DNA from: Nitrospirota bacterium
GTDB taxonomy: Bacteria > Nitrospirota > Thermodesulfovibrionia > Thermodesulfovibrionales > Dissulfurispiraceae
NCBI GenBank assembly: GCA_963780885.1
Contig: CAWAEO010000002.1
Coordinates: 889,665-953,664 of the forward strand
Reading direction: 5' to 3'
Length of the DNA stretch: 64,000 nucleotides
The notes under the pieces are model-generated. The model had not been told where the DNA came from and did no database searches. It saw only the letters and a program-made list of their open reading frames with translations. Positions 12,047 through 61,518 of this stretch are shown piece after piece. Position numbers and translations under genes: made by a program. How positions within the stretch are numbered: position 1 is the first letter of the stretch; every line of letters starts with the position of its first letter.

Positions 12047-13432
12047 TCAGCGATCGTCGCCTTGTGATTCTTTTTCCAGCGGCACAACTTTTCCAACTTC
12101 ACGCCTTAAGTAATCAACTATTTTCAGTTTTGCGTATTTTCGTGTCATCTTGCTATCTGCGTGTCCCCACCACTGCTGCATCACCTCAACAGGTAATCCT
12201 TTGTTGACAAGTTGAGTGCCGAAAGAGTGTTTAACAAATTCGTACATAGTTATTTTCAGGCTGTTGTTAGTGGCCTTATTGAAACGCGCTAATCCTCTAG
12301 CAAAAGCACGTGAAAGCGTACAGTAGTTGTAAGGGGCACTGTTAAACTTAAAAACATAATCCAAATCAAAAGACCTCGCAGGCAGCACCGCGAGGGTTTC
12401 AGGCAATAAAGGGTTGTGAATTATCTCTCCCGTTTTTGTGCGCTCACTAAAGGTGTTAAGAGAAAAGCAACTTCGGTAGGTCACCATCATATTTATCAGG
12501 TCTACACATTCCCACTTTAAAGCCCTGGCCTCACACGGACGGCAACCCTGATAAACCATGTACAAGAATATGGGCTGATGTTCCTTTTCAATATATAGTA
12601 GTATGGACTCTTGCACATCCCTTGAGACAGTAACAGGTTCACGCTCAGGAATAACCTCAAGCTTCGGGAAAACAGGTCCGGGTGGAAGAAGTATTCTTTC
12701 GTCTTCAATTAGCCATTTAAAAAAACCACCGAGGTATACCATTTTGACATTCTTTGTAGATGTAGCTCCTCGAAGTGACTGATAGAAGTCCTTTGTATTA
12801 TGAATTTCCCTAACGTCCTTATTACCATAGAATGCAACAAACTGACGGCACTTACTAGCAAGCCCTGTTTTGGTAAATGTCTTTAATCGTGGCTGTTTCT
12901 CTTGTTCCCATCTTGCTATTAATCGGTCAAACTCAAATTCAATTGCTTTTTTGGCTACCCAAACATCAATGTTAAACTTGCCAGGTACGCTCTTCTGTGC
13001 CATGGCAAGGTCATAAAGCGACTGTGCCATATAGTGATTAGTGATCTTCTTACCCTCAAGTGTGGTGGTACGGGCAACTCGTTTACCCTCATCATTAAAA
13101 TAAACAGTGAACCGATCAGGTATCCGATTGAAGTGATTAGGACAGTGATAATACTTATTTTCAGCGTCCCATTTAAAACGCGAGCCACAGTCTTTGCACT
13201 TCCCGTCCGCTTGTATCCCCTTTGACACGGGTGTATACCCTCCACTACAGAATGGAGGAATTATAACCCGTTCAGTTATTCCAGTCAAATCCCCAGTCTC
13301 AACGAGTCGACCTGCTATATTTTTCGGCAGGTGATTGCCTGGACGGGAAGTATTATGTTTGTTTTCCACAATATATATTAGATTTTGATCGACTTGTTTC
13401 GTTGCGTCGTACCGTATTAGGGGAAATTTCAT
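12047..13432 (-). CDS. Tyrosine site-specific recombinase (phage-integrase family) with an N-terminal Cys-rich segment
   Basis: 461 aa. Contains CRPCEARALKWECVDL (Arg-I region), HSFGTQLVNKG and GHADSKMTRKY (the His/Tyr end). The N-terminal region has CKDCGSRF...YHCPNH. Confidence 0.8.
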   Translation of the reverse strand: MKFPLIRYDATKQVDQNLIYIVENKHNTSRPGNHLPKNIAGRLVETGDLTGITERVIIPPFCSGGYTPVSKGIQADGKCKDCGSRFKWDAENKYYHCPNHFNRIPDRFTVYFNDEGKRVARTTTLEGKKITNHYMAQSLYDLAMAQKSVPGKFNIDVWVAKKAIEFEFDRLIARWEQEKQPRLKTFTKTGLASKCRQFVAFYGNKDVREIHNTKDFYQSLRGATSTKNVKMVYLGGFFKWLIEDERILLPPGPVFPKLEVIPEREPVTVSRDVQESILLYIEKEHQPIFLYMVYQGCRPCEARALKWECVDLINMMVTYRSCFSLNTFSERTKTGEIIHNPLLPETLAVLPARSFDLDYVFKFNSAPYNYCTLSRAFARGLARFNKATNNSLKITMYEFVKHSFGTQLVNKGLPVEVMQQWWGHADSKMTRKYAKLKIVDYLRREVGKVVPLEKESQGDDR

Positions 13433-13572
13433 TTAATCGTATTTTACTGATTGGCTTTGTTAGATTTCTTTCCGATTGTATATTGTGTCGATCCTCAGGG
13501 GCGAGCAATTATCCCTCTACGTAAGCGCTCCACGGAATATGTCAATGACTTTGAGACACCCCTCGTCCACAT

Positions 13573-14589
13573 TTAGTGTATTTCCTCTTCAGGAACTGGT
13601 GCTGCCTTTGGCTTGTTAATCCATACGGCCTCAGGAAGTATCGGCGGCACAGGGATTTTTTTAACAAATCTCTCAGGATGTGCTTCATATGCAACGCGCA
13701 GAACTTCACCCCTGGCTATCTGTATTTCTTGTGCAAGGCCGTAATGTACAGCTTCCGGCGTATGCAGGCCGATGCCGGTATGTCGATGCTCTTTGTTGTA
13801 CCAAGGAAAGAAATCCTGGCAGAAGCTCCGAGAGTCTTCGATGCTACCAAACCGCTCAGGAAAGTCCGGCCGATATTTAAGTGTCTTAAACTGGGACTCT
13901 GAATAGGGGTTGTCATCGCTCGTATGCGGTCTGCTGTGGGTCTTCGTGATCCCAAGGTCGGCCAGGAGTAATGCTACAGGTTTGGATTTCATTGATGAAC
14001 CCCTGTCGGCATGAATCGTGAGCTGATCTCTCCCGATATTCTGCTTTGAACAGGTTTCTCCAATGAGCCTCTCTGCCAATACCGCCGATTCTGCAGGGGC
14101 TATCATCCAGCCGACAATATAGCGGCTGAAGATGTCCATGATCACATACAGGTAAAAGTATGTCCACTTTACCGGACCGAGAAGTTTCGTGATATCCCAG
14201 GACCAAACTTGGTTCGGGGCTGTAGCCAAAAGCTCTGGCTTGCTATACACCGGGTGACGCAACTGGTTTCTGCGCTCCTTGACCTCCTTGTTCTTATCGA
14301 GGATGCGATACATTGTCCGTATCGAGCAATGGTATTGGCCCTCGTCCAAAAGAGTTGCATAAACCTCATAGGGTGCCTTGTCCACAAATCTGTCGGTGTG
14401 GAGGATATCAAGTACTCCCTGCCGTTCCTCGGAAGACAGTGAACGAGGCGAGTTCCGATCCTGCACAGGCTCAACAAAGTGGGCATCTTTGCGTGCCTGT
14501 GTGCGGTAAAACCCGGCACGCGCAACATCAAGCGCTTCACATGCATGCTTGATCCCAACTTCAGAGGAAAGGGTCACTGCAGCTTCCAT
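13573..14589 (-). CDS. IS3-family transposase OrfB (DDE)
   Basis: 338 aa. Contains VWSWDITKL...IHADRGSSMKS...SESQFKTLKY and YNKEHRHTGIGL. Confidence 0.92.
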   Translation of the reverse strand: MEAAVTLSSEVGIKHACEALDVARAGFYRTQARKDAHFVEPVQDRNSPRSLSSEERQGVLDILHTDRFVDKAPYEVYATLLDEGQYHCSIRTMYRILDKNKEVKERRNQLRHPVYSKPELLATAPNQVWSWDITKLLGPVKWTYFYLYVIMDIFSRYIVGWMIAPAESAVLAERLIGETCSKQNIGRDQLTIHADRGSSMKSKPVALLLADLGITKTHSRPHTSDDNPYSESQFKTLKYRPDFPERFGSIEDSRSFCQDFFPWYNKEHRHTGIGLHTPEAVHYGLAQEIQIARGEVLRVAYEAHPERFVKKIPVPPILPEAVWINKPKAAPVPEEEIH

Positions 14590-15035
14590 CAGTCGGTCTC
14601 TCCTCCTTCGGGGATCGCAAGCGGGATTCCCAGTATCTCGGATACTTTTTTTTGGATATCTATTATGATCTCTGCCTGTCTAAGACGTTTGATAATCAGT
14701 TCATTGTCCCTGCGGAGCTTCTCATTTTCCGCAATAAGTGGATTGCGAACTGCTTCCTTGCGGCCTCGCTTCTTGGGCTTCAGGGCTGACAGGACTCCAC
14801 GCTCTCTTTGGGTGCGCCACGCATTGAGGTTCGAGGCATACAGTCCCTCACGGCGTAGCAGCGTTCCCATACTTCCGCGTCCCGTGCATGCATCGGCAAG
14901 GGTGAGGATACGCAGTTTGTATTCGGCAGTGAACCTCCGCCTGACTGCCTTATCCGGCACCTCTGGGTTCGGATGGGCTACCGTCAACTTGGCTCCCTCC
15001 ATTGTCTGTGTTTTATTGACCTTTGCAGCTATCAT
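14589..15035 (-). CDS. IS3-family transposase OrfA
   Basis: 148 aa. Contains RRRFTAEYKLRIL and a coiled-coil tail. TGATG stop/start overlap with orfB. Confidence 0.9.
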   Translation of the reverse strand: MIAAKVNKTQTMEGAKLTVAHPNPEVPDKAVRRRFTAEYKLRILTLADACTGRGSMGTLLRREGLYASNLNAWRTQRERGVLSALKPKKRGRKEAVRNPLIAENEKLRRDNELIIKRLRQAEIIIDIQKKVSEILGIPLAIPEGGETD

Positions 15036-15278
15036 TATGATTTTTCCTCCCCGGCCTTCTACTCTAATTTAGCATAAGGGAGGTGTCTCACTTATATTGA
15101 CACAGAGGGCCATCTGCAAAGTCTACTTTCACGGTTAGAGAAAGTTTCGATCCTGTAAAAAAAATGTGAAATTTTGGATAGACAGTTTTGTCGTCTCCAT
15201 TTCTTGACCCTAGTAAAAGAACCGACCATCTACATATAAGATAGCCGGTTCTCTGACCCCAAATATTATTTCTAATTT

Positions 15279-16481
15279 TTAAATATTGGACCCGTCGGAC
15301 GGTAGCGCCTCGATTGCTACCAGCCTGTCACTTATAAGCAGCTCTGTTGCATCAAGTTCTTTGAGTATGGCAGACCTCGCTTTATCCAAGGAGTCCTTCA
15401 TTATAAGCAAGTGTTCTTTTACTGGCGCCTTGCATTCAAGGGCCGCTACATCATCGTTGATAAGGCCAGCCGTATTTTTTACGTCTTTCGATAAGCGATG
15501 AATGAGCATAAATACATGGGTAGCCTGCTCTTGTAGGACATTATGAACCTTGTCAGCCATTTCCTGTAACGATTCGCGATTCTTCCTTTCAAGTTCAGCA
15601 ATTAGTTTCTCCTTTGCCTTGATATCATTTTTTAAAACCTTCTCGTTGTGTTCATGGACATCTTGCAGTCGCTTAACCTCTGCATTATTATCGCCGTGCT
15701 GCGCCAGAACATCCCTTAATCTATCCTGATTGATTTTAAGTTCCGTGGACATCTGTTCGGAGGCAATGAGCTTCTTTTTCAAGCTATCGACTTCTGACTG
15801 TAGGGTGGCAATATTATTGTCACGGTCCTGTATTTGTTGTTGCAGTTCAGGATCTTTTATGATGTCCCTGATCACATTCTTGTGCTCAGTAATGGTTACT
15901 TTTGAGTTATTGACCCCGGCAGCTATTGCTTGTTGGATTTCTATCGGCAGGGCGGTGAAGGCCGTGATAAGATCCGCATCTGACCGCATTTGGAAAACAT
16001 TTTTTTCTATGAGATACTGAAGCTCGGGAACACATTTTTGGCTTGCCCTTACTCGATAAGCTGTTCTTTTTGACCATATCTGATGTATTTTTTCTGTCTC
16101 ATTTATCTGCTGCAATAAGGAATACTGGGCTCGAACAAAGTTCTCGGTTTTCCATGCATCAATAATATCCTCGTCGCTTGAAAAATGCCGTATATAACAA
16201 GGGATTGACGTCCCCAGTTTCTTGGCAGTTTCCGTTCTGCGCCTTCCAATTATTCGGTGATACGTGCCGTCTGAGTTGGGCGTCACCACGATAGGCTGCA
16301 AAAATCCTCTATCTACAACTGACTCTGCCATTTTGTCCATGTCTGCAGATCCAATTGGAAATATCCCATGTTCTTCGAGATACGCAATAGCGGGATGAGG
16401 GTTAATACAGTTTGGGTCGAGATGAATTAGTTGCCCCTCCTGCAGTTCAACTGGTGTTTCGGACTTAGTTGTTTTTTCCAT
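15279..16481 (-). CDS. ParB/Srx N-terminal-domain protein with a long coiled-coil C-terminal region
   Basis: 400 aa. Contains LQPIVVTPNSDGTYHRIIGRRRTETAKKLG (a ParB box GxRRxxA-like motif). The C-terminal ~110 aa are paralogous to the C-terminus of 17323..17925. Confidence 0.7.
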   Translation of the reverse strand: MEKTTKSETPVELQEGQLIHLDPNCINPHPAIAYLEEHGIFPIGSADMDKMAESVVDRGFLQPIVVTPNSDGTYHRIIGRRRTETAKKLGTSIPCYIRHFSSDEDIIDAWKTENFVRAQYSLLQQINETEKIHQIWSKRTAYRVRASQKCVPELQYLIEKNVFQMRSDADLITAFTALPIEIQQAIAAGVNNSKVTITEHKNVIRDIIKDPELQQQIQDRDNNIATLQSEVDSLKKKLIASEQMSTELKINQDRLRDVLAQHGDNNAEVKRLQDVHEHNEKVLKNDIKAKEKLIAELERKNRESLQEMADKVHNVLQEQATHVFMLIHRLSKDVKNTAGLINDDVAALECKAPVKEHLLIMKDSLDKARSAILKELDATELLISDRLVAIEALPSDGSNI

Positions 16482-17217: not shown

Positions 17218-17325
17218 TTGACAATAAATAGCATATACAGCGACACTATATTATATAGAGAAAAAGATAAGAAAAAACAAATATCAGTTGACAATAAATA
17301 TTGTGTAGAGCGACAATATGCTATG
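17218..17325 (+). promoter_or_regulatory. Tandem duplicated promoter/operator-like repeats; the second would give a leaderless transcript
   Basis: ttgacaataaatagcatatacagcgacactat begins at 17218 and ttgacaataaatattgtgtagagcgacaatat begins at 17288. TTGACA is followed after 18 nt by GACAAT, ending 5 nt before the ATG at 17323. No Shine-Dalgarno sequence is visible. Confidence 0.35.
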
Positions 17326-17925
17326 GGAAGAAAAAGAAAATACGAAACCAACGCCGAGCGGCATGCAGCCTACCGAAAGCGTAATAAAGAGAAAGGGAAA
17401 TTTGCTTATCTTTTTATTCCCAATAAAATCGCCAAAATAAAAGATTTCAAGCCGAGTCTGCTTGTTGAAAGATTCGATGAGATTGAAACTGCCTTGAAAA
17501 ATGAAAGGGAAATAATGGATCATAATGTTAAACTCTTGCAAACCGATATTAAGAACAAAGATAAACAAATTTTTGACCTCGAACAGAAAAACCGCGAGGC
17601 GGGACAGGAAATAGCGGACAAGGTTCATAATATCCTGCAAGAGCAGGCTAACCATGTATTTATTCTCATTCATCGCTTAGCAAAAGAGGTAAAAACTACG
17701 GCAGGCCTTATCAACGATACTGTATCGGCCCTCGAATGCAAACCGGCAGTAAAGGAACACCTACTGGTAATGAAGGACTCTCTGGACAAAGCGAGAACTG
17801 CGGTAGTTAAAGAGCTTGATGTAACAGAGTTGCTTATAAGTGACAGGCTGGTAGCAATAGAGGTGTTCGATTCCCACACGCTCCCGCCAAATTTTCTTGT
17901 TAAATCAATCGAACCATCGCCTTAA
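17323..17925 (+). CDS. Hypothetical coiled-coil protein sharing its C-terminal domain with the ParB-like protein
   Basis: 200 aa from the internal ATG (MGRKRKYETNAERHAAYRKRNKEKGK). The C-terminus QEIADKVHNILQEQANHVFILIHRLAKEVKTTAGLINDTVSALECKPAVKEHLLVMKDSLDKAR matches residues of the 15279..16481 product. Confidence 0.55.
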   Translation: MGRKRKYETNAERHAAYRKRNKEKGKFAYLFIPNKIAKIKDFKPSLLVERFDEIETALKNEREIMDHNVKLLQTDIKNKDKQIFDLEQKNREAGQEIADKVHNILQEQANHVFILIHRLAKEVKTTAGLINDTVSALECKPAVKEHLLVMKDSLDKARTAVVKELDVTELLISDRLVAIEVFDSHTLPPNFLVKSIEPSP

Positions 17926-21098: not shown

Positions 21099-21380
21099 AG
21101 TTTCTCTTGAAAATCTTCACTGCAGACTCTTCTAATAGACTGTTGGTTAGGAGGTGAAATATCGCGTTTCTCGGCCACGCGCATTCATGCGTGTTGCAGG
21201 AAGAAGAACTAAACCGCTAGCGCGGTAGCCCTTCGGTTTGCCGCATTTTATTTGCTCAAGACGAAATTAATTTCCAACCCCAAATAGCCTCTGTAAGCTT
21301 GTTACTGAATCTCGTTACAATCTCCTTTGTCGTACCGTCGGCATGCGCTGACGGAGATCAGTAGCAAGGGAGATTTTGTT

Positions 21381-22226
21381 ATGACAAAGCTCAGGGATCA
21401 AATGATTCAAGACCTTCAGTTGAAAGGCGCCACACAGCAAACTCAGAATATATATCTGAGAGAGGTAAGTAATTTTGCAAAGTACTTCAGCAAGTCCCCT
21501 GATGAGATAACCGAGGATGAGATCAAAGAGTATCTGCTTCATCTCAAGAAGGACAGGGATTTAGCGGATGGCACCTTTCGATTCTATGTGGCGGGCATTA
21601 AGTTTTTATACAGGACGACACTGCAAAAGGAATGGATGGTGGATAAGATCAAGTTTGGCAAACGTAAAAAGAAGCTGCCTGTAGTTCTGGATTTGTCCGA
21701 AGTGCAGGCTCTTTTTTCAGTCACAGAGAATATCAAACATAAGGCCATTTTGATACTCACGTATTCTTCGGGATTGAGAATAAGTGAAACATCACGTCTG
21801 AAAATAACCGATATCGACAGTAAACGCATGATGGTGTATATACGCCAGGGCAAAGGTGGTAAAGACCGTTACTCCATTCTGTCTCAGACCGCCCTGGAGT
21901 GTTTACGCCAATACTGGAGGGACTATCGTCCTAAGGAATGGTTATTTGAGGGACAGACCCAGGATAAGCATATATGCTTAACATCGATACGGAATATCTT
22001 TGTTGATGCCAAGAAGCGCGCCGGCATAACGAAACAAGTCTGTCCTCACACGCTCAGACACAGCTTTGCAACCCATTTGATTGAGGCAGGCACCAGCCTA
22101 CATCATGTTCAGTTGCTTCTGGGACATAGATCTCCTACTACGACAACCGTCTACCTTCATGTCAGCAAGGTGAATCTTGCTCAGGTAGCAAGTCCCCTGG
22201 ATAAAGCTTCCCAACAAACTGCATAG
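21381..22226 (+). CDS. Tyrosine recombinase of the type found paired with IS91-family transposases
   Basis: 281 aa from the ATG with RBS agggag. Contains SGLRISETSRLKITDID (Arg-I), HTLRHSFATHLIEAG and LLGHRSPTTTTVYLHV. Confidence 0.85.
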   Translation: MTKLRDQMIQDLQLKGATQQTQNIYLREVSNFAKYFSKSPDEITEDEIKEYLLHLKKDRDLADGTFRFYVAGIKFLYRTTLQKEWMVDKIKFGKRKKKLPVVLDLSEVQALFSVTENIKHKAILILTYSSGLRISETSRLKITDIDSKRMMVYIRQGKGGKDRYSILSQTALECLRQYWRDYRPKEWLFEGQTQDKHICLTSIRNIFVDAKKRAGITKQVCPHTLRHSFATHLIEAGTSLHHVQLLLGHRSPTTTTVYLHVSKVNLAQVASPLDKASQQTA

Positions 22227-22250
22227 GGCCGTAATTCACGCTCTCTACAG

Positions 22251-23441
22251 ATGCGCACCTCCAACGGCACCGAGGTGGCGGATATATTCCGCCAGTACGG
22301 TCATGATTACAGAGTATCCCATAATATGCCACTCAAGCATTTGCGGGCCATGGGTGCTATTGAGGCATGCAGGACATCACGTCTTGGCGGGCATAAGGAT
22401 AAGTGTGATAACGACGAATGCGGCCACATCGATATATCCTATAACTCCTGTCGTAACCGTCACTGCCCCAAATGCCAGTTCCTGAAGAAAGAGCAGTGGA
22501 TAGAGGCACGGTCTGATGATCTCCTCCCCATACAATACTTTCATGTGGTTTTTACTATCCCTTCTGAACTGAACACCGTAGCCTTAAGGAATCCCAAGAT
22601 TATGTATGATCTTCTTTTCCGCTCTGCTTCAGAAACACTAATAGAACTCGGCAATGACCGTCTCGGTGCCCGTATCGGATTCATCGGCATCCTCCATACC
22701 TGGGGCCAGAACCTTATGGATCATCCGCATATACACTGTGTTGTTACCGGCGGGGGGCTGTCCAGTGACGAGCAACACTGGGTGGCCTGCCGGAAAAAAT
22801 ACCTCTTCCCTGTGAAGGTTATGTCAGACCTGTTCAAGGGCAAGTTCCTCGATTACTTCAAAGAAAGCTATACTGCCCAAAAGCTTGAGCTGACAGGCAG
22901 TATCAGTCATCTGATGAAGCCCCATGTTTTCGAACTATTTATAGGAAAGCTCTACAATAAAAAATGGGTAGCATATTGCAAACCTCCGTTTAACGGCATT
23001 GACGGAGTTCTTCAGTACTTGAGCCGGTATACCCACAGGATAGCCATCAGTAATAACCGTATTCTGAAGGTTCAGGACGGCCAAGTAACTTTCCAGTGGC
23101 GTGACTACGCCGACAATGACCGTTTAAAAGTCATGACACTGGATGCTGATGAGTTCATCAGAAGGTTCCTTATGCATGTACTTCCTGATCGCTATGTAAA
23201 AATCAGACATTTCGGCCTGATGGCAAACAGAAAACGCAAACATAATATCGAGTTATGCCGTCTGCTTCTCGGCAGTGACAAAACAGAAACGATCAAATCT
23301 GAGCCTAAGACCTGGCAGGAACTTATGCTTGAAGTCTCAGGCGTCGATGTCACCAGATGTCCGGTTTGCCGGAAAGGCAGGATGGTGGCGATTGAGGTCC
23401 TGCATTACTTCAGATGCAACAGCCCACCGGGTCAATACTGA
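22251..23441 (+). CDS. IS91-family (Y2 HUH, rolling-circle) transposase
   Basis: 396 aa. It has an N-terminal zinc-binding region CRTSRLGGHKDKCDNDECGH...CRNRHCPKC. The HUH-like motif is HPHIHCVVTGGG and the tyrosine motif is YLSRYTHRIAISN. Confidence 0.88.
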   Translation: MRTSNGTEVADIFRQYGHDYRVSHNMPLKHLRAMGAIEACRTSRLGGHKDKCDNDECGHIDISYNSCRNRHCPKCQFLKKEQWIEARSDDLLPIQYFHVVFTIPSELNTVALRNPKIMYDLLFRSASETLIELGNDRLGARIGFIGILHTWGQNLMDHPHIHCVVTGGGLSSDEQHWVACRKKYLFPVKVMSDLFKGKFLDYFKESYTAQKLELTGSISHLMKPHVFELFIGKLYNKKWVAYCKPPFNGIDGVLQYLSRYTHRIAISNNRILKVQDGQVTFQWRDYADNDRLKVMTLDADEFIRRFLMHVLPDRYVKIRHFGLMANRKRKHNIELCRLLLGSDKTETIKSEPKTWQELMLEVSGVDVTRCPVCRKGRMVAIEVLHYFRCNSPPGQY

Positions 23442-23829
23442 TATGAACGTTGAGCTGAACATAAATCTGTACCTATGCGAAAACTTGATCGTTGGTCGCG
23501 ATATCGGCTTATTGTCAAAAATCTCACATTCCCCGGCGATCAAATCACACTGCGGCCCCTCTGGCCTACCTATATCACTTCCAATCCAAAAGAATCATCC
23601 AATTAAGTCCACAACAAATAAAAAAATAACAGATTCTTATCCAGCTTGGTAAGAACGGGCGATATTGAATCGCCATAACCCGCGGCATAGTTCTTCACAC
23701 GTCATTCCGCAACTTCGCAGCGGAATGACGCTTAACCGTACCAAAGACCTACCGGTACGATATATGGTGTGAGCAGGTATATCATAACGTCTCATCAGAT
23801 TGATCTCTAAGTGTCTCTTATATTAATTA

Positions 23830-24249
23830 TTAATTATCTTCAACCCAGAGCATATGTTTTCTTAATGAGGTTCCTTTGAGTGCATTATAAAGTTTGAGGT
23901 CGGCGGTCACCATCTGGCAATCGGTTTTTACAGCAAGAGCAACGTAGAGGCTGTCGTAAAAAGACCTTTTTGTCCGGCAAGCAATATCAAAGGCTTCATC
24001 CGAAAGAATGAAGCCTTCCCATATCTGCAGAAAATTCGACTGAAGCTCTCTCAGGATTGCAAATGCTATATTCCTGGAACATGCACTCGCTGTGACGCGC
24101 TTCCATAAAATATTTCCGATTTCTGAAAAGAGAAGGTCCGGGGCAAATAATTCATTCCCGGATTTAAGAAGCCGTTCAGCCTCTTCGGTATAGTTTTCAG
24201 GAAAATACCACTTGATTGCAACGCTTGCGTCGACAACAAACCTGTTCAA
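23830..24249 (-). CDS. vapC: Type II toxin VapC (PIN-domain RNase)
   Basis: 139 aa. Contains FVVDASVAIKW plus acidic residues in SEIGN, YDSLY and VTAD. The TTG start overlaps the antitoxin stop. Confidence 0.88.
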   Translation of the reverse strand: MNRFVVDASVAIKWYFPENYTEEAERLLKSGNELFAPDLLFSEIGNILWKRVTASACSRNIAFAILRELQSNFLQIWEGFILSDEAFDIACRTKRSFYDSLYVALAVKTDCQMVTADLKLYNALKGTSLRKHMLWVEDN

Positions 24250-24479
24250 CGCTCACGATCCTCACGGATAAGTTCAGCGCTATCAGAGAATTTTCTCTTG
24301 CCGAAGCTTGCACGAATTCTTGATGCCCGTTCCCTGACCTCTTCCATAGTCATCTTTTGTGCTGCCTCTTGCAGAATAAGTTTTGCTTCGCCCTGTAGAG
24401 AACGATGATGATTTTTTGCCCTAAGCTTGAGGCGATTGATAATATCGGTTTCAAGGTCTCTCACAAGTAATTGAGCCAT
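24246..24479 (-). CDS. vapB: Type II antitoxin (FitA/VapB-like ribbon-helix-helix)
   Basis: 77 aa, MAQLLVRDLETDIINRLKLRAKNHHRSLQGEAKLIL. It lies immediately upstream of and overlapping vapC. Confidence 0.8.
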   Translation of the reverse strand: MAQLLVRDLETDIINRLKLRAKNHHRSLQGEAKLILQEAAQKMTMEEVRERASRIRASFGKRKFSDSAELIREDRER

Positions 24480-24627
24480 CTCTTACCTCCTTGCATACAC
24501 TATGATAGCATTATGTTAGCAAATTGGATTAGCTATTGCAACCTTGTTTCGCACGAATGTCAGATTTCTAACTGATCCACTACCGATCAATCGTCGAGGC
24601 TGTCGCAGAGGCGCCGTATCATTGCCT

Positions 24628-24838
24628 GTCTCAAAAACACCTGATTATGAGACTCGTAAATCAGACCAGAGAAACGGCTTAAAATAAGGCTTCCAGTAAG
24701 TCATCTTTGAGGGGGATTTTGAGACAGCCTTCAGAGATTGGAAATTAACGGTGTCAGAAAATCAACGCCGAAGTTAACTTTGTCCCGTACCTGCGACCAT
24801 AGCGGAGTGTCTAAATAAATTTGATGCACCTGAAAACC
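24628..24838 (+). repeat. Conserved ~210-bp noncoding element, copy A, upstream of the Gabija-like operon
   Basis: It aligns by eye with the reverse complement of 52228..52455. The shared string includes gtctcaaaa.ca.ctgatt.tgagac ... acggct.aaaataaggcttccag.aagtcat ... gggggattttgagacag ... tcagagat.ggaaat.aacggtgtcagaaaatcaa ... ttaactttgtcccg.acctgcgacca.agcggag. There is one 6-nt indel. Confidence 0.85.
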
Positions 24839-25082
24839 CGCAAAAAGCTTCCACTCCGAAAAAATCCAGATCATCAAAAGTACCTGACACAATCCATTCA
24901 TAGGTACTTCTTTTGTAACTGAACGTGGCAATCTGTTAAAATGGTGCGTGGTACAACCAAAACCAATGTTTAACAATATCCGAAGGACACTATGTAATTC
25001 TGATGCGCATAGGCCTCCATCTCTTTTTTTTATGATATTGGTTGCGGTCTTTTTCGCCGCTAAGGAATAAGGGATAAAAGAC

Positions 25083-27401
25083 GTGAAAATTAAGTTTGTA
25101 GAAATTCAGAATTTCCGAAAGCTGAAATCGGTCAGGATTGAATTTGCTGACGAAACAACAGTATTTGTGGGAGCAAACAACAGTGGAAAAACATCTGCCA
25201 TGGACGCGCTAGATCGTTTTTTGGTTAACAAACGTGTTGATACTAATGATTTTACCCTGTCGAATTGGAGGCAGATCAACAATATTGGAAATGCCTGGGA
25301 GAAGCAATCAACACAGCCCGGCACAAAAATACCCACTCTGGATGAACTGGATAAAGTTTTACCAATCATGGACCTCTGGTTACAAGTTAAGGAAACTGAA
25401 ATTTATCATGTCATTAACCTTCTGCCAACATTAGATTGGAAAGGCGACTTAATGGGTGTCAGACTGAGGTTTGAGCCGAAAAACATCGAGGATTTTTACA
25501 AAGAATATCTCATCGCCCGGAAAGAAGCTGCAGAGACTATTGCGGAGATAAAGAAGAAGACCGCTGAATTTTCTATTGAGCTGTGGCCAAAAACCATGCG
25601 CGAATTTCTCGATAGACGATTGAACAGCTTATTTGCTGTCAGGGCTTACATATTAGACCCAACTAAGTGCGCTGAACCAAAAAAAGGCATAGCTTATCCC
25701 CAACCTTTACCCGGAGGCAGTGAATATTTGGATGGCGACCCCCTGCGGGGGTTAATCCGTGTTGACGGGATTACTGCTCAACGAGGGCTTTCAGATGTTG
25801 GCGACGAAAGAAGCCAATCTGAGAGCGATGGACAGCAACATCGTGAACGCGTCGATCGACGTAAGCTATCAGTTCAACTACGCGACTACTACGCGAAACA
25901 CCTCGATCCCTCTGAGTTACCTGATCCTTCTGATGTGGAAGCGTTGCGAGCCATCGATTCAGCACAGACATCATTTGATGGAAAGCTGAAAGCGGCTTTT
26001 AAAAAGGCCTTGAATGAATTAGAGAGCTTGGGATATCCGGGTATAACTGATCCTAAACTGACTATTTCAACTAAATTCCAACCCTTGGATGGTCTCAATC
26101 ATTCATCGGCGGTCCAGTTCGAGGTGATTGATCAGTGTGGTGAAAAGCAAGAAATTCCTTTGCGTCTGCCTGAGCAATATAATGGTTTGGGTTATCAAAA
26201 TCTGATCTCCATGGTTTTCAAGCTGATGAGTTTTCGAGATGGGTGGATGCAGGTTGGCAAAGCAGCCAAAAAAGCATTAACGAAACCAGAAGCATACATT
26301 CCACCGCTGCACTTGGTTTTGGTCGAAGAGCCGGAGGCACACTTGCATGCGCAGGTGCAACAAGTTTTTATCCGCAAGGCTTATGATATCCTACGCAACC
26401 ACGATGATCTAGGAAAAAAAAGTAACTTTGGAACCCAACTAGTTGTCAGTACCCATTCGAGCCATATTGCACACGAAAGCGACTTTTCTTGCCTTCGCTA
26501 TTTCAGGCGGTTACCAGCGCAAAAAAACGTAATGGATATTCCGACGTCGACAGTTGTTAATTTATCTGAAGTCTTCGGAAAGGGAAACGAAACTCAGCGC
26601 TTTGTAACCCGCTATTTGAAGACAACACACTGTGATCTATTTTTCGCCGATGCAGCAGTTTTGGTAGAAGGCCCTGCAGAACGAATATTAATTCCATATT
26701 TTATACGTCAACACTTTGAGGAGCTTAACCAGAGTTACGTGACGGTTTTAGAGATTGGCGGCAGTCATGCTCACAGGCTACGCTCCCTTATTGATCATTT
26801 AGGACTTATAACACTGGTTATTTCAGACCTGGATGCAGCGGAGTCAGCAAGTGACAAGTCTGTGCAGCCTGTCCGAGGCAAGAATCAAATCACACGAAAT
26901 AGTACTTTGAAAACATGGTGTCCTCAAAAAGAACTTATAGATGAACTACTAGACTTATCTTTCGAAGAAAAGGTCACAATAGACGACCCGTTGTTTTCGG
27001 TTCGCGTCGCTTATCAGCGTCCAGTTAATATCATGCTTAACCCTGAGAGTGTTGCTGAGGAAGCACTTTCCAATACCTTTGAAGACGCTCTTGTTTTTGA
27101 TAATATATCAATTTTTAGAGATTTAAAAGGGTCTGGCCTCATAAAGAAATTTAAGGATGCAATAAAGAATGCCAAGTCTTGCGCTGATTTGGGGCAGGCG
27201 ATGTTTGCTGATTTAAAGACAGGTAAAAAGGCCGAATTTGCGCTGGACATGCTTGATTTGCCAGAGCCTAATAAACTCAAAATTCCTACATACATTAACG
27301 AGGGTTTGTCATGGTTGCAGGAACAAGTGAGAATAAGACAGAAAGAAGTTATGGTACCGAGCGAAACTTGCGCTTTGGGGAGCAGCGGAACTCCTAGCTG
27401 A
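25083..27401 (+). CDS. gajA: Class 2 OLD-family ATPase/Toprim nuclease (GajA-like)
   Basis: 772 aa. Contains MKIKFVEIQNFRKLKSVRIEF...VGANNSGKTS (Walker A) and LVLVEEPEAHLH (Walker B). The Toprim region is LFFADAAVLVEGPAERILIPYF...VISDLDA. It is followed directly by a UvrD-like helicase. Confidence 0.85.
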   Translation: MKIKFVEIQNFRKLKSVRIEFADETTVFVGANNSGKTSAMDALDRFLVNKRVDTNDFTLSNWRQINNIGNAWEKQSTQPGTKIPTLDELDKVLPIMDLWLQVKETEIYHVINLLPTLDWKGDLMGVRLRFEPKNIEDFYKEYLIARKEAAETIAEIKKKTAEFSIELWPKTMREFLDRRLNSLFAVRAYILDPTKCAEPKKGIAYPQPLPGGSEYLDGDPLRGLIRVDGITAQRGLSDVGDERSQSESDGQQHRERVDRRKLSVQLRDYYAKHLDPSELPDPSDVEALRAIDSAQTSFDGKLKAAFKKALNELESLGYPGITDPKLTISTKFQPLDGLNHSSAVQFEVIDQCGEKQEIPLRLPEQYNGLGYQNLISMVFKLMSFRDGWMQVGKAAKKALTKPEAYIPPLHLVLVEEPEAHLHAQVQQVFIRKAYDILRNHDDLGKKSNFGTQLVVSTHSSHIAHESDFSCLRYFRRLPAQKNVMDIPTSTVVNLSEVFGKGNETQRFVTRYLKTTHCDLFFADAAVLVEGPAERILIPYFIRQHFEELNQSYVTVLEIGGSHAHRLRSLIDHLGLITLVISDLDAAESASDKSVQPVRGKNQITRNSTLKTWCPQKELIDELLDLSFEEKVTIDDPLFSVRVAYQRPVNIMLNPESVAEEALSNTFEDALVFDNISIFRDLKGSGLIKKFKDAIKNAKSCADLGQAMFADLKTGKKAEFALDMLDLPEPNKLKIPTYINEGLSWLQEQVRIRQKEVMVPSETCALGSSGTPS

Positions 27402-29314
27402 TGGAAAACTTTACCATCGTTGATGACAATCATTTTGATGATCATGTAGACGACGAAATCAACGATTACCTTTCTCTAGATAAACCAATCAGTTTTTTCT
27501 TATTTGCCGGAGCAGGTTCAGGGAAGACCATGTCACTTGTAAATGCGCTAAATCATCTGCGAAGGGTAAGCGCAAAAAGACTGCGCTTGCACGATCAAAG
27601 GGTGGGCGTAATCACCTATACCAATGCCGCCTGCGATGAGATTAAACGGCGGCTTGACTTTGATCCCTTGATCGAAGTTTCAACAATTCACAGTTTTATC
27701 TGGTCATTGATCGCGGGTCTAAATCCTAATATCAAAGAGTGGTTGAGGGCTAATCTGGAAAGCGAAATTGCCGATTTGATGGAAAAACAGAGGAAAGGAA
27801 AAGCCGGAACAAAGGCAGCGCTGGATCGCGAAAAAAGCATCGAGATAAAACAGAAGCGCCTTTCCGGTTTGGATGACATCAAGTGTTTCACATATAACCC
27901 CAACGGGGACAATCGAGGTCGGGACTCATTAAACCACAGTGAAGTTATCAAAATAGGAGCTTATTTCCTCAGGGAAAAACGACTCATGCAAAGCATATTT
28001 GTGAACAAGTACCCTATACTGCTGATTGATGAAAGTCAGGATACAAATAAACTCCTTATGGAAGCCTTCTTGGAAATCCAGCTGAAGCATAATAGCCGCT
28101 TTACACTTGGTTTGTTTGGCGATGTCATGCAGCGCATTTATGGGGACGGAAAGATTGATCTCGGCCAAAACCTACCCAGCGACTGGGCAAAACCAGCCAA
28201 GAAAATGAACCACCGCTGCCCACGGCGGATAATCAAGCTGATTAATAAGATTCGCTCCGCAGTAGACAACCATGATCAAAAGGCAAGAACTGACAGGGAC
28301 GAGGGTTTTGTTCGCTTATTTATTTTACCTGGTCTTACAACAGACAAATCTAACATCGAGCGTAAGGTCGCTGAACGGATGGCGATTATCACTGGTGATT
28401 CACTCTGGAGCGGCACCAATGCAGACATTAAAACTTTGACCATCGAACATCATATGGCTGCTCGGCGAATGGGTTTCTCAGAGATGTTCGAGCCACTGTA
28501 CAAAGAGGATAGCCTTAAAACTGGATTATTGGATGGCACGCTTCCCGGTCTGCGTTTGTTCTCACAATTCGCCTTGCCAGTAGTAAAAGCAAAACAGAAC
28601 GGCGATGATTTTACTGCAACAGCTATTTTGCGCAAAAATTCCCCGTTGCTTACCAAGTCGGCCATTAAAATCAGAGGGAAAGATCAACGTCTGCAGATCA
28701 AAAAAGCTCAGGAGGCTGTCACTAAACTGTTAGCCCTTTGGAACAAAGGGGGCCAGCCACGCTTTCTGGACGTTTTGCATTGTATCGCTGAAACGGATTT
28801 ATTTGAAATTCCCGAAAGTCTGCGACCAATTACATACAGAACCAAAATCGAGCAAGAAACCGTCGAAAAGAGCAGTGAAGAGCCTTTGTCAGAAGAGGAT
28901 TATCCAGATTTTGTTTTGGATGCCTGGGACAAGTTTTTGTTGACACCTTTCTCCCAAATTGCGCAATACGCTGCTTACGTGAGTGGACAGGCCCAATTTG
29001 AAACTCACCAGGGCGTTAAAGGTCTTGAATTCCCCCGTGTGATGATAATAATCGACGATAACGAGGCGCGAGGCTTTTTATTTAGCTATGACAAGTTATT
29101 TGGAGCTAAGGATAGAACAGCGACTGATGCAAAAAACGAAAGCGAGGGAAGCGATACAAGCATTGATCGCACTAGGCGACTGTTTTATGTGACTTGCAGC
29201 CGAACGGAAAAGAGCCTGGCAATCGTTGTCTATTCCACTACTCCTGAGAAAGTTCTCAACCATGTCTTGTCTGAGGGCTGGTTTGAAAATAACGAAGTCG
29301 AAACCTTAACTTAA
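27401..29314 (+). CDS. gajB: UvrD/PcrA/Rep-like superfamily 1 helicase (GajB-like)
   Basis: 637 aa. Contains FLFAGAGSGKTMS (Walker A), LLIDESQDT (motif II), HQGVKGLEFPRVMIII and YVTCSRTEKSLAIV. The start overlaps the gajA stop (TGATG). Confidence 0.85.
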   Translation: MENFTIVDDNHFDDHVDDEINDYLSLDKPISFFLFAGAGSGKTMSLVNALNHLRRVSAKRLRLHDQRVGVITYTNAACDEIKRRLDFDPLIEVSTIHSFIWSLIAGLNPNIKEWLRANLESEIADLMEKQRKGKAGTKAALDREKSIEIKQKRLSGLDDIKCFTYNPNGDNRGRDSLNHSEVIKIGAYFLREKRLMQSIFVNKYPILLIDESQDTNKLLMEAFLEIQLKHNSRFTLGLFGDVMQRIYGDGKIDLGQNLPSDWAKPAKKMNHRCPRRIIKLINKIRSAVDNHDQKARTDRDEGFVRLFILPGLTTDKSNIERKVAERMAIITGDSLWSGTNADIKTLTIEHHMAARRMGFSEMFEPLYKEDSLKTGLLDGTLPGLRLFSQFALPVVKAKQNGDDFTATAILRKNSPLLTKSAIKIRGKDQRLQIKKAQEAVTKLLALWNKGGQPRFLDVLHCIAETDLFEIPESLRPITYRTKIEQETVEKSSEEPLSEEDYPDFVLDAWDKFLLTPFSQIAQYAAYVSGQAQFETHQGVKGLEFPRVMIIIDDNEARGFLFSYDKLFGAKDRTATDAKNESEGSDTSIDRTRRLFYVTCSRTEKSLAIVVYSTTPEKVLNHVLSEGWFENNEVETLT

Positions 29315-29874
29315 TAATGAATGCTAAAGAGATTCTCAATCGGTCATTTCTATTTCCTGAAATAGACATGTTCATGAATTGGTCAAATAGAGCAAATTTC
29401 ACTGTAAGAAAGTTGGCGGATTGATGAGTTATGAATAAGGGGGGGGAAACACCCTGTCGTCAGGTGAAAGTTGTATCGCGGTAATATACTCAGCCACTGG
29501 AGACAATGACTTCTACTCTTTGTATCCCTATGTTGTTAAAGTGCCTTTGTCATTAATCCAATATTCCTTGCCCATATTCATATATCCAGGGGGTATCGGA
29601 TTTTTGGTGACACGGCGTTATAAATGGTAATAAAATCATGCCCAAGACCGATGCCCCCCGCTCAATGCGTATTCCGGACCATGCCGACCAGTCATTCCGG
29701 AGCAAGCCGACCACCTATTCCGGAGTATCCCGACCACTGAATCCGGTGTGAAGTCGACCACTTTTGGGCGATAACCGGAAAAAGCTGTTGGAAATGCTGT
29801 AGAGAGTATTTGCCGAAGCTGGATAATCAGAAAACAAAGATGTCATTGTTTTCCCTTACACCAAAGGAGGAACA

Positions 29875-31416
29875 ATGGCATCAGAGAGGTTATCCATGCG
29901 GAAGGTTAAATAAGTATTACGGCTTCATTTTGGTTTGGAGCTGGGCAAAAGACAAATTGCCAGATCGTGCAGTATATCGCACAGCACGGTTTTGGATTAT
30001 ATCAACCGTGCCAAAAAAGCTGGGCTGAGTTGGCCTCTTCCCAGTGCAGTTGATGATACGGCACTTGAGGCACGTTTATTTCCTTCAGACATCTGCCATA
30101 ACAATACATCAAGCCGTCCCGTTCCAGACTATCAAGCCATGCACAGCGATCTCAGTAAAAAAGGAGTGACGCTGCAGCTTCTGTGGTACGAGTATAAGCA
30201 GCAGTATCCTGAGGGCTATCAGCATACCCAATTCAGTGAGTTGTATAGACGCTGGGCAAAGACTCTTGACGTTAGCTTACGTCAGGAGCATGTGGCCGGG
30301 GAAAAAATGTTTGTGGACTTTGCTGGTAAAAACATACCCATAATCGATGCCCATACAGGGGAGATAAGCGAAGCGGAAATCTTTGTAGCTGTACTGGGGG
30401 CATCTAATTACACCTATGCAGCAGCAGTCTTGTCTCAGGACCTGCCGTCCTGGATAGAGTGCCATATCAGGACATTTGAGTACTATGGCGGTGTTACCGA
30501 GATCATCGTTCCCGATAATCTTAAGTCAGGGGTAACGAAAGCATGCCGGTATGAACCGGATCTGAATCCGACGTATCGGGATCTCTGCCAGCATTACGGC
30601 ACAGTTGTGATTCCAGCACGAGCTGGAAAACCAAAAGACAAGGCAAAAGTGGAAGCCGCAGTGCTCCTGGTGACCCGCTGGATTATAGCAGCGCTGAGAC
30701 ATCATACCTTCTTCAGCCTTACGGAACTGAATGTCGCCATAGAGGAACTGCTTGAAAGACTCAACACCCGCAAATTCCATAAGCTGGACTGTAGCCGGAA
30801 AGACCTCTTTGAACGGCTCGACAAACCAGCCCTGAAACCTCTCGTGGTTGAGAGGTACGAGTACGCCGAGTGGAAGAAATCTACAGTGAACATCGACTAC
30901 CACATAGAGATAGCGGGGCAATATTACAGCGTTCCCTATCAGCTTATCAGGCGGCAAGTTGAAGCACGCTTCACCAGCAGCGTTGTGGAGATACTGTACA
31001 AAGGCAAGCGTGTTGCTCTTCATCAAAGGAGTTATCAGAAGGGAAAGTTCACAACATGCGATGAGCACAGACCCAAAGCTCACCAAAAATATCTTGAGTG
31101 GACCCCGTCACGGATAATCGCCTGGTCGGCTCAAGCCGGGCCGCAGACGGCGGAACTCGTCGAAAGAATAACCGCCTCACGACATCATCCGGAACAGGCC
31201 TTCCGTTCCTGTCTGGGGGTAATAAGTCTGGGCAAGAAGTACGGCAATGACCGGCTTGAGGCAGCATGCGCACGGGCTCTGACCATAAAGTCCTATTCCT
31301 ACAAGAGCGTCAAGTCCATACTTGAGAGCGGCTTTGACCGGCTCTCTTTACCCAAACAGGAGGTGATGCCTATAGTTGAGCACGACAATATCAGAGGCGG
31401 CAGCTACTATAACTAA
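29875..31416 (+). pseudogene. istA: IS21 transposase IstA with an in-frame TAA at codon 13
   Basis: The RBS aaggagg precedes ATG 29875, giving MASERLSMRKVK, then TAA (29911-29913). VLRLHFGLELGKRQIARSCSISHSTVLDYINRAKKAGL continues in the same frame. The rest (493 aa) looks intact, including the DDE region. Confidence 0.8.
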
Positions 31417-31433
31417 AACAGTAAGGAGAAAGA

Positions 31434-32186
31434 ATGAACAATCAGACAATGGAGAAACTCTACCAGATGCGCCTGGGCACCATGGCCGAGGCGTTCAAAG
31501 AACAACTAAATGCCCCCTCACAGAGCAGCTTGAGCTTTGAGGAACGTTTCGGGATGATCATTGATGGTGAGTGGACAGCCAGGGAAAACAGAAAACTGCA
31601 AAGCCGCCTGAAAGCGGCACGGCTCAAACTCAATGCCAGTATCGAGGACATCGATTACCGCCATCCCCGGGGGCTGGATAAATCCGTTGTGTTGTCGCTG
31701 GCATCGTGCCAATGGGTAAAGGGCCACCACAACATCATAATCACAGGTCCCACCGGCATCGGCAAGACCTACATAGCCGAGGCATTTGCAAATAAGGCTT
31801 GCCGGGAAGGCTACAGTGCAACACGCTACAGAAGCACCCGGCTTCTTCGTGAGCTGGCGGTGGCACGAGGCGATGGCAGCTATATTAAGCTCCTCGCCCG
31901 ACTGTCAAAAGTAGACCTGATGATCATCGATGATTGGGGATTAACGCCACTGACTGAGGATGAGCGAAAAGACTTCCTGGAGGTAATGGAGGATCGGCAC
32001 GGGCTGAGGTCTACCATCATCACCAGCCAGTATCCGGTATCAAAATGGCATGATCTCATAGGGGAGCCGACCCTTGCCGATGCCATCTTAGATCGCATCG
32101 TGCATAATGCTCATAAGTTTACTTTGAAAGGAGAATCCTTGAGAAAGACAAAGGCAAAGTTGACTCATCCCGACCACCAAAAGTAA
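31434..32186 (+). CDS. istB: IS21 helper ATPase IstB
   Basis: 250 aa. Contains ITGPTGIGKTYIAEA (Walker A) and DLMIIDDWG (Walker B). Confidence 0.93.
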   Translation: MNNQTMEKLYQMRLGTMAEAFKEQLNAPSQSSLSFEERFGMIIDGEWTARENRKLQSRLKAARLKLNASIEDIDYRHPRGLDKSVVLSLASCQWVKGHHNIIITGPTGIGKTYIAEAFANKACREGYSATRYRSTRLLRELAVARGDGSYIKLLARLSKVDLMIIDDWGLTPLTEDERKDFLEVMEDRHGLRSTIITSQYPVSKWHDLIGEPTLADAILDRIVHNAHKFTLKGESLRKTKAKLTHPDHQK

Positions 32187-32321
32187 GATAAGAGCGTCCA
32201 GCTTCGCTATACTCCTCAAGTGGTCGCGATGCTCCGGAACAGATGGTCGCCATCACCGGAATACGCACTCAATGCGTCAACAACTGAAAACAGAAGTGCA
32301 CTTATGAAAAAGGTGACAAAG

Positions 32322-38045: not shown

Positions 38046-38432
38046 CAAATTATTTTATTTCTTCCAACTCCTTCACCGCCTTAATCAGTGCAAGCTCCAG
38101 AAGATCCAGAAGTTCATATGCCCGCATAAGTCTTCCTCTGTCCTCTGCAGGCACTTTGCTCATCTCTGTCTGTAGCGCGGCACAGCGTTCCATCGCGTTC
38201 TCTAAAGCTTTCAAAGCTGCCTCACGACTCACGACTGCACCTCCTGTCTCAACATTCCATAAGCAGCACAAGAAAAGAAATAGTTTTGCCTGAAGCACCT
38301 ATTCGTGCGAACTAAGAACCTGACTCCGACTTCATAGCATTTGCCTGAAGAATCGAATCTCTCTTTAACTGTCCGGCTATTATTTCCTCGTGTTTAGCAT
38401 ATTATCATAGTTCGCTGCTATTGAAAAGTATA
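38046..38432 (-). repeat. Copy 2 of the ~300-bp small-ORF module (uninterrupted, with an 80-nt insertion/duplication in the leader)
   Basis: See 903..1199. The leader holds two cttcaggcaaa repeats versus one in copy 1, and a hairpin agttcgctgctatt...aatagcgaact. Confidence 0.85.
38050..38232 (-). CDS. Conserved 60-aa helical protein (paralog of 906..1088)
   Basis: The RBS aggagg precedes GTG 38232. The product is (M)SREAALKALENAMERCAALQTEMSKVPAEDRGRLMRAYELLDLLELALIKAVKELEEIK. Confidence 0.6.
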   Translation of the reverse strand: MSREAALKALENAMERCAALQTEMSKVPAEDRGRLMRAYELLDLLELALIKAVKELEEIK

Positions 38433-47758: not shown

Positions 47759-48222
47759 AGATGCGCTTGCCACTTTTCTGGCGTTTGCCTTCGGCTCCCT
47801 ACTTAGCAGACGTTCATCACAGAATGATTTGCTCACAGAAGCCAATAGATTCAGATTGCCGCAACTGTGTGCAGAGTATTATCGGAAATGATTACCCTAG
47901 GTTGCGAAGTTAATAAGAAACAGATTTTATAAGTCGCTTCGGTTAAGCTGTACTCCCCATAATCGTGAACGAATCTCTTCGCACAAAAGTGTTCCTTTCA
48001 ACCGAAGTCAACACCTCGGCCAGCTCACCAAAAATGTTAACTTTGGAACTGTCAAAATCGGATTCTCGGGTATTTATAGGTCGCAAAAAAACATTCTTTC
48101 GAAAAATGCTGCATACTGCCCCTTTAAAACTAGCAGAATCAACATAAAACGTTATTTTCGATCTACAAAGCTGTTTTAATGATTCCCCTGGCTATGTATG
48201 GTTAGCTTGCCCAACCGAACCT

Positions 48223-61444: not shown

Positions 61445-61518
61445 CCCTCTGTGTCAATATAAGTGAGACACCTCCCTTATGCTAAATTAGAGTAGAAGGC
61501 CGGGGAGGAAAAATCATA

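Follow-up and report, generated by a model that had tools for sequence, protein, structure and literature searches.

Probable orphan res-like recombination sites upstream of Gabija and ABC-3C operons in a defence island of a Nitrospirota bacterium

A noncoding repeat that occurs as two inverted copies, copy A upstream of a Gabija-like operon and copy B upstream of an ABC-3C module, is best explained as a pair of diverged, orphan res-like recombination sites, that is, as relics or junction markers of mobile modules. We put the probability of this explanation at roughly 60%. Both copies lie in the window, by which we mean the whole 64,000-nucleotide stretch of Nitrospirota DNA that was analysed. 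As judged from sequence, reading the element as a recombination site is most likely on account of the geometry of the sites and of their counterparts next to serine recombinase genes elsewhere. Among the roles put forward in the original prediction for this DNA was a recombination or attachment site used for swapping defence cassettes; the recombination site itself is favoured by this geometry and by the recombinase-linked counterparts, while ongoing swapping is not shown.

BLASTN aligned copy A (24628–24842, forward strand) with copy B (52453–52231, reverse strand) at 82.6% identity over 224 columns (E = 2e-59), in agreement with the original prediction that one element is common to both loci and stands upstream in each. 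Each copy was then widened by 1 base, to 24627 and 52454 respectively, so that the first base of the outer half-site is included. The single 6-nt indel described earlier is replaced in a global alignment by a main indel of 7 nt and three indels of 1 nt, in addition to 29 mismatches. By BLASTN, the window contains these two copies only, which are mutually inverted and about 27.4 kb apart. The flanks of the two copies are unrelated on either side, with local alignment scores no higher than those of shuffled sequences, and the outer edge of site I is the exact point at which homology between the copies begins. With the widened and extended boundaries, copy A ends 240 nt before the gajA start (25083) and copy B ends 326 nt before the first ABC-3C start (51904); the distances of 244 and 323 nt reported previously are correct for the boundaries used then.

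The element is noncoding, because the substitutions are distributed 10/10/9 over the codon positions (n = 29) and the copies have no open frame in common; an ORF of 78 aa in copy B (52297–52533, reverse strand) is broken in copy A. The earlier statement that the conservation looks to be at the level of nucleotides and not of protein agrees with this. Transversions account for 20 of the 29 substitutions in the global alignment, and about 10 of the substitutions, counted by eye, are exchanges between A and T, a share that would fit constraint on DNA rather than on RNA or protein. Conservation is highest in the centre of the element and lowest at both edges: the first dinucleotide is TG in copy A and CG in copy B, and both copies end in CA. 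BLASTN retrieved no further whole-element copy from plasmids, E. coli genomes or phages, and exact-pattern scans with the best-conserved blocks across GTDB representatives, JGI metagenome contigs and IMG/VR gave chance matches only, as verified by BLASTN and nhmmer. The source genome is not among the GTDB representatives, where a pattern that fits both copies exactly failed to retrieve it. Recurrence at other defence genes, which had been proposed as a check by BLASTN or nhmmer, did not emerge, as no further whole copy was found in the collections searched.

Site I of the res regions of Tn3 and gamma-delta spans 28 bp and consists of two inverted 12-bp half-sites, each starting with TGTC followed by an A/T-rich stretch, and the res subsites have a 28/34/25-bp layout. 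Recombinase dimers bind paired half-sites, and strands are exchanged at the central dinucleotide of site I. DNA on the site I side is exchangeable between elements, and the recombinase gene is normally located on the accessory-site side. In all, three dimer-binding sites are contained within 114 bp of a res region (PMC2602789, PMC9943657). The element analysed here is a cluster of 12-bp half-sites with the consensus TGTCTCAAAAWC (Table 1). Matches to TGTCTCAAAATC with at most two mismatches occur four times per copy within about 140 bp, and the whole window contains 19 such matches against 8.5 expected; in 100 shuffles this number never occurred. At the outer edge of each copy, 28 bp are arranged as a 12+4+12 inverted repeat that has TGTC outermost on either side, so that two inverted 12-bp half-sites surround a short spacer in both A and B. 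The arms of this palindrome are complementary at 9 of 12 positions in copy A and at 10 of 12 in copy B, the two palindromes are identical to each other at 22 of 28 positions, and the central dinucleotides are CC in A and TC in B. The analysis also confirms the TTTTGAGAC-type motif of the original prediction and its 12-2-12 palindrome in copy B.

Inward of site I, a second 12+4+12 pair spans element positions 73–100 with a weak left half, and its right half (positions 89–100; 24715–24726 in copy A) has the same sequence in A and B. The half-sites at positions 89–100 and 126–137 are invariant between the copies, while the DNA between them varies. These two strong inner half-sites are oriented TGTC to TGTC with 25 bp between them, which is an unusual pairing, and their presumed partners are weak. 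A further half-site of copy A, at positions 182–193, is degenerate in copy B, and the inner 80 nt of the element are well conserved without any half-site. In our proposal, the outer 28 bp would be the crossover-type site and the half-sites at positions 89–100 and 126–137 would act as accessory sites, the whole array presumably being bound by a resolvase.

Table 1. Positions in the window of the two copies, their half-sites and the neighbouring features
Feature	Position	Strand	Remarks
Copy A of the element	24627–24842	+	216 bp; runs from site I to inner end; both ends sharply defined
Copy B of the element	52231–52454	-	224 bp; from BLASTN and global alignment with copy A
Site I-like palindrome, copy A	24627–24654	+	TGTCTCAAAAAC-ACCT-GATTATGAGACT; 24/28 identical to L049 site
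Site I-like palindrome, copy B	52427–52454	-	CGTTTCAAAATC-ATCT-GATTTTGAGACA; 24/28 identical to L049 site
Site II-like pair, copy A	24699–24726	.	Weak left AGTCATCTTTGA, GGGG, strong right GATTTTGAGACA
Site II-like pair, copy B	52355–52382	.	AGTCATTTTTTA-GGGG-GATTTTGAGACA
Inner half-site, copy A	24752–24763	+	TGTCAGAAAATC; identical in copy B; element positions 126–137
Half-site, copy B	52318–52329	-	TGTCAGAAAATC; from motif scan
Half-site, copy A	24808–24819	+	TGTCTAAATAAA
vapC (PIN) and vapB (FitA-like RHH) toxin-antitoxin pair	23830–24479	-	Transcribed away from site I
Gabija-like operon	25083–29314	+	GajA-like AAA_15/OLD-TOPRIM and GajB-like UvrD helicase; outside the element
Small serine recombinase gene	38534–39229	-	231 aa, Gin-like; the only one in the window; 11–14 kb from both copies
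ABC-3C three-gene module	48223–51904	-	Not part of the element
hsdS relic, last 94 nt	51905–51998	-	Homology to L036–L041
hsdM-upstream relic, 45 nt	52049–52093	-	Homology to L036–L041
Type IIG restriction-modification-like gene	52671–56420	-	Adjoins copy B on the site I side with its 3' end and a terminator-like hairpin

Palindromes of the same kind, up to 24/28 identical, are situated 145–195 nt upstream of small serine recombinase genes at six unrelated loci. When the viral contigs of IMG/VR were scanned for the palindrome, a strict pattern retrieved two loci (L048 and L049), both with a small serine recombinase gene nearby, and a relaxed pattern retrieved eight, seven of which were new; with both scans pooled, such a gene is found within a few hundred bp at five of nine distinct loci. 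In L049, TGTCTCAAAAAC-ATTT-GATTTTGAGACG is located 147 nt upstream of a gene encoding a 194-aa protein with Resolvase and HTH_7 domains and is followed by more half-sites. In L048, the palindrome is perfect and precedes, by 195 nt, a two-gene operon whose last gene encodes a 197-aa recombinase, and this site is divergent from a DndB-like/AAA_15 gene pair. L050 and L055 each contain two inverted sites 139 bp apart between the recombinase gene and a DUF6591 gene, and by its sequence this paired arrangement looks like a small invertible switch. Among the loci without a recombinase, L053 is nevertheless arranged like L050 and L055, with paired sites and DUF6591, and the remaining three of the nine viral loci (L051, L052 and L056) carry the relaxed palindrome with neither a nearby recombinase nor a recognisable switch, the palindrome being close to an XRE-M78 gene in L052 and to a Rha-like gene in L056. 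Palindromes of the relaxed type are thus not confined to recombinase loci.

Homologues of the L049 recombinase encoded on annotated plasmids are preceded by a similar site 150–161 nt upstream of the gene, and the plasmids concerned belong to Clostridium botulinum, Piscirickettsia salmonis and Legionella antarctica. On the L. antarctica plasmid pTUM19329-1 (L060), TGTTCCAAAAAC-ACCT-GTTTTTGACGCA lies between divergent genes for a Tn3-family transposase and a recombinase, and its ACCT centre is also that of site I in copy A. The sites of copies A and B are 21–24/28 identical to the recombinase-upstream sites of L049, L054, L048 and L060; the L049 site, at 24/28 to each, is closer to both copies than they are to one another. 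Sites of the L049/L054 type are carried by phage-like plasmids of the Bacillus cereus group (for example NZ_CP152430.1 and NZ_CP132071.1), where site I is 23–24/28 identical to A and B and is separated by nearly the same distance from the right half of the second site (positions 89–100 in A and B, 90–102 in the L049 and L054 res regions). Sequence similarity to these sites, however, ends at site I. Unlike A and B, the Bacillus cereus-group sites are followed by a recombinase start codon at +146 to +148, and their accessory half-sites are TGTATCAAAA-type motifs arranged > > < <, which is not the arrangement in A and B.

On the outer side of copy A, 148 nt separate site I from the start of vapB. 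In Tn3-family transposons that encode TnpR, toxin-antitoxin pairs are located next to res site I "in every single case" and tnpR adjoins site III, and res site I is a documented point of module exchange between transposons of this family (PMC7157771). Copy A together with vapBC reproduces the '<T <A res' layout of these transposons (PMC7157771), in which a toxin-antitoxin pair abuts site I and points away from it; this feature is frequent but not universal in Tn3 elements, and it was observed for copy A only. Gabija occupies the place expected for tnpR. No close VapC relative with a linked res and tnpR was detected by tblastn against plasmids or by a scan of viral contigs. VapBC pairs of at least 90% identity do occur on other contigs, P0304/P0308 on one of 89 kb and P0303/P0307 as a second pair. 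At the accessory-site end, neither copy is accompanied by a cognate recombinase gene: where such a gene would be expected, 140–210 nt of unrelated sequence are followed by the defence operon. A tblastn search with four recombinases found no recombinase gene or relic beside copy A or copy B, the only match in the window being the gene at 38534–39229, and a Pfam search of 58 selected ORFs, including all long non-overlapping ones, found no Tn3-type transposase in the window.

The element thus resembles the res regions of the Tn3 family (Tn3, gamma-delta, Tn21, Tn5501 and relatives) in its 28-bp site I and in the further half-sites located inward. It differs from them in that the array is longer, at about 190–216 bp against 114–130 bp, in the atypical pairing of the accessory half-sites, and in that the two copies are inverted and not direct. 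A Tn3-family transposon would carry 38-bp inverted repeats at its termini and a gene for a Tn3-type DDE transposase of about 1000 aa, whereas here neither tnpR nor tnpA is found anywhere in the window and no such repeats were recognised.

The left 12 kb of the window are ordinary chromosome, with genes for a histidine kinase, peptidoglycan-recycling enzymes and a glycosyltransferase, and a mosaic island starts at a tyrosine integrase gene (12047–13432). The integrase gene is followed by an IS3-family element, a ParB-like gene, an IS91-family unit with a XerC-like recombinase, vapBC, copy A and Gabija, then by an IS21-family element, a phospholipase C-like gene, a CHAT-TPR gene and the small serine recombinase gene, and further on by several unknown genes, ABC-3C, copy B, the type IIG restriction-modification-like gene and an SRAP gene, with a tniA/tniB-like pair split by a second, identical copy of the IS3-family element at the end. 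The closest relatives of the ABC-3C module (81% DNA identity; L036–L041) lie within a type I restriction operon with the order hsdM, ORF, hsdS, ABC-3C, hsdR, in which hsdS ends only 2 nt before the first ABC-3C gene, and the element is absent from them. ABC-3C is located near copy B because hsdM–hsdS has been deleted, with relics of hsdS and of the hsdM-upstream region left between the two. At the other locus, none of the closest public Gabija loci (GajA 78–79% identical at the amino acid level) carries the element upstream, and DNA homology with these loci begins at 25051–25063, that is, 20–30 nt before the gajA start; the sole promoter-like site upstream of gajA (24913–24942) is in the non-homologous spacer outside the element. 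Copies A and B probably derive from two related mobile modules, of the Tn3 family or of a plasmid or phage-plasmid resolution type, which were absorbed into the island, and the position upstream of Gabija and ABC-3C would then be an accident of island assembly.

The same neighbourhoods bear on the idea, raised in the original prediction, that the element is a regulatory leader or ncRNA shared by the two operons. Such a cis-regulatory region, whether a promoter/operator or a transcribed leader, would allow one regulator to coordinate Gabija and ABC-3C, with the half-sites as operators of a dimeric helix-turn-helix protein. The palindromic half-sites, the same orientation relative to both downstream operons, and the similar palindromes by the XRE-M78 and Rha-like genes, where no recombinase is nearby, are compatible with this role, but we consider it quite unlikely: unrelated DNA of 240 and 326 nt intervenes before the start codons, the element is missing from close relatives of either operon, and copy B became adjacent to ABC-3C by deletion, as seen from the hsdM-upstream and hsdS relics between them. 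The equal position and orientation at both operons was correctly observed, but as a clue to a leader it is a 1-in-2 coincidence, reached through deletion in the case of copy B. Moreover, no sigma-70-like site was found inside copy A or copy B, the stability of RNA folding is ordinary (z = -0.4 and -1.0 for the two copies) with no signal of RNA structure, and Rfam returned no match at the gathering threshold and nothing relevant at E values up to 10. A role as regulatory leader of these operons is thus improbable, and the case is a warning that a shared upstream repeat need not be one where the closest relatives of both operons do without it. An absence of function is unlikely as well. If the element were a functionless remnant of an old segmental duplication that had never been a protein-binding site, one might expect what is observed in part, namely two copies only, 17% diverged and without relatives in the collections searched, and a copy A palindrome that is partly decayed (9/12); however, the motifs are clustered far above chance, near-identical sites adjoin recombinase genes in unrelated organisms, and two half-sites are perfectly kept while the spacer varies. 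A decayed end of a mobile element had been suggested too, and in a loose sense this may be right if the element is the relic of the res region of a module. As the terminal segment of a DDE transposon (of the Mu, Tn7, Tn5053 or IS21 type) or of a miniature non-autonomous element, with the motifs as transposase-binding sites, it is very unlikely. In its favour, the first two bases of copy A are TG and the last two of either copy are CA, ends of this type commonly have several subterminal repeats (as does, within the window, the IS21-family element at 29666–32267), and a TniA/TniB-like pair is present at 60.9–64 kb. Against this, the element has no terminal inverted repeats, no target-site duplication could be read from the sequence under the boundary models checked, conservation is poorest at the tips, with CG in B in place of the TG of A, no partner end was found in the window, and the TniA-like homologues are 425-aa proteins on contigs of 2–5 kb, which look like compact insertion sequences and have no tie to the motif. 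Individual candidates within the island were also rejected. The tniA/tniB-like genes might have belonged to a Tn7- or Tn5053-like transposon with copy B as its left end, but this idea was dropped, as the homologues of these genes are IS-like and compact, no related motif occurs downstream of tniB and the tips of the element are poorly conserved; copy A is not the end of the IS91-family unit, which terminates at 23738; the ends of the IS21-family element consist of another repeat, ATTCCGGAG...CCGACCAC; and a 13-nt resemblance between the element and the IS3-family terminal repeat GACTTTGAGACAC goes no further.

The inverted arrangement of the copies, with crossover-type sites at their outer ends, brings to mind an invertible segment, in which A and B would be the crossover sites of a 27.8-kb block, possibly flipped by the Gin-like recombinase encoded at 38534–39229; inversion would place either Gabija or ABC-3C downstream of the type IIG restriction-modification gene. 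Of the explanations considered here, this is the least probable. It is favoured by the location of that recombinase gene inside the interval, by Gin being the nearest solved structure to its product, and by the palindrome type, which is that of the inverted pairs 139 bp apart beside a recombinase gene in L050 and L055. The catalytic domain of the enzyme is 45% identical to those of the L049 and L048 enzymes, in alignments that cover catalytic domains only and of which one stops at residue 182, before the recognition helix; the presumed recognition helix, read by eye, is unlike those of L048, L049 and L054, whose C-terminal helices have the motif R(A/S)(T/S)xYR(Y/H) in common, and no TGTC-type palindrome occurs near the gene. 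The hix, gix and cix sites of Hin, Gin and Cin also consist of inverted pairs of 12-bp half-sites with an A-tract, the pair in the element having been read as 12-2-12 in the original prediction. The two sites here are inverted and stand at the outer ends of longer inverted repeats, as do the crossover sites of the phage P1 C segment. However, invertase sites are without accessory half-sites and require identical central dinucleotides, whereas the presumed accessory half-sites of A and B point to a resolvase-type site, the interval measures 27.8 kb, CC in one centre stands against TC in the other, and no sign of inversion was found. For serine recombinases, unequal central dinucleotides block productive exchange. 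Because the copies are inverted and their central dinucleotides differ, recombination between A and B is unlikely, and we infer that the pair is presently inactive. When res sites are in inverted repeat, recombination between them is about 1000-fold poorer (PMC9943657). An independent assembly of the same strain, the Logan short-read assembly ERR10755942, traverses copy B without a branch, whereas towards Gabija the contig breaks off at 24624. Under the k-1 = 30 rule for contig ends, which was verified at two other contig ends of this assembly, the junction would be at 24623/24624 or 24653/24654, the two edges of site I in copy A. This is not the position expected for an A/B hybrid, and no hybrid junction was seen; the break may be a coverage gap, as the Logan assembly is without several other genes of the window, and its coincidence with the edge of site I is weak evidence. 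It is also highly improbable that the sites are still live, such that a small serine recombinase acting in trans, either the Gin-like enzyme or one encoded elsewhere, inverts the 27.8-kb block or swaps defence modules with elements bearing cognate sites; if this were true, it would amount to resolvase-driven shuffling of defence operons.

If copies A and B are indeed orphan res-like sites, the element records the route by which the defence island was assembled. Gabija and the composite of type I restriction-modification and ABC-3C would each be located on the recombinase-gene side of a res-like site, and the crossover side would hold the toxin-antitoxin pair at copy A or the type IIG restriction gene at copy B. 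Such sites would offer a signature, TGTCTCAAAAWC-N4-GWTTTTGAGACA, for finding junctions of this kind. Orphan res sites at the borders of defence modules would thus extend the site I module swapping of Tn3-family transposons to defence islands.

Several mobile elements lie in the island, and their coordinates are collected in the table together with those of the paired palindromes and the inverted repeat discussed below.

Coordinates of mobile elements and repeats (window positions, unless a viral-contig locus is named)
Feature	Position	Remarks
IS91-family unit	21202-23738	XerC-like tyrosine recombinase and Y2 transposase
IS3-family element, two copies	13533-15109 and 61445-63021	inverted to each other, 100% identical
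IS21-family element	29666-32267	istA, istB; inserted directly downstream of Gabija
Inverted repeat, 346 nt	15308-15653 and 17518-17863	81% identity
Paired TGTCTCAAAA...TTTTGAGACA palindromes	L050 7932-8096; L055 8134-8297; L053 2242-2405	inverted orientation

The ABC-3C module appears to derive from a larger operon. In loci of its relatives (L036-L041; 81% DNA identity), the three ABC-3C genes lie between hsdS and hsdR of a type I restriction operon. In the corresponding region (48207-52093) the window retains only a 94-nt tail of hsdS and 45 nt of the region upstream of hsdM, which indicates that the window ABC-3C is a stripped-down form of this RM-embedded system.

The region upstream of vapBC (24495-24540) contains the motifs TGATAGCA and GCTATTGCA. 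FitAB binds a TGCTATCA inverted repeat, and because the two motifs are similar to it, vapBC probably has an operator of its own, apart from the res-like element (copy A). A Logan contig (L001), from an independent assembly of the same strain, starts at window position 24624, and by the k-1 rule its break is placed at 24623/4 or 24653/4, at most 3 nt from one edge of the 28-bp site of copy A. Either the sample could contain a second context of this site, or the break could be no more than a gap in coverage. In the viral loci, the paired palindromes are separated by 138-139 bp. In L050 and L055 the pair has a gene for a 205-aa serine recombinase on one side and a DUF6591/zinc-ribbon gene on the other, and is probably an invertible switch; in L053 the sites and both neighbouring genes are present, but the recombinase gene is absent.

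Copies of the IS91-family unit in other assemblies (L044-L046) share 84% identity with it. Here, as in each of these three relatives, a toxin-antitoxin pair with a PIN toxin comes next, but the pair and its orientation differ; this could be target preference or coincidence. The IS21-family element has TGCGTATTCCGG termini, and its left end carries three tandem 23-nt ATTCCGGAG...CCGACCAC repeats.

A segment beside the small serine recombinase gene (38047-38314 and 38400-38432) recurs close to the window's left edge (903-1165 and 2485-2517; 91-100% identity), where an IS3-family insertion (orfA/orfB, 1261-2435) divides it. The left copy looks like a filled site and the recombinase-side copy like an empty one. 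The 346-nt inverted repeat overlaps the 3' part of a ParB-like gene and an unannotated ORF (17218-17925).

The right copy of the two identical IS3-family elements splits a tniB-like (AAA_22) gene, upstream of which lies a tniA-like (rve and Mu-transpos_C) gene. The two copies are spaced 46 kb apart, and most of the island could invert via homologous recombination between them.
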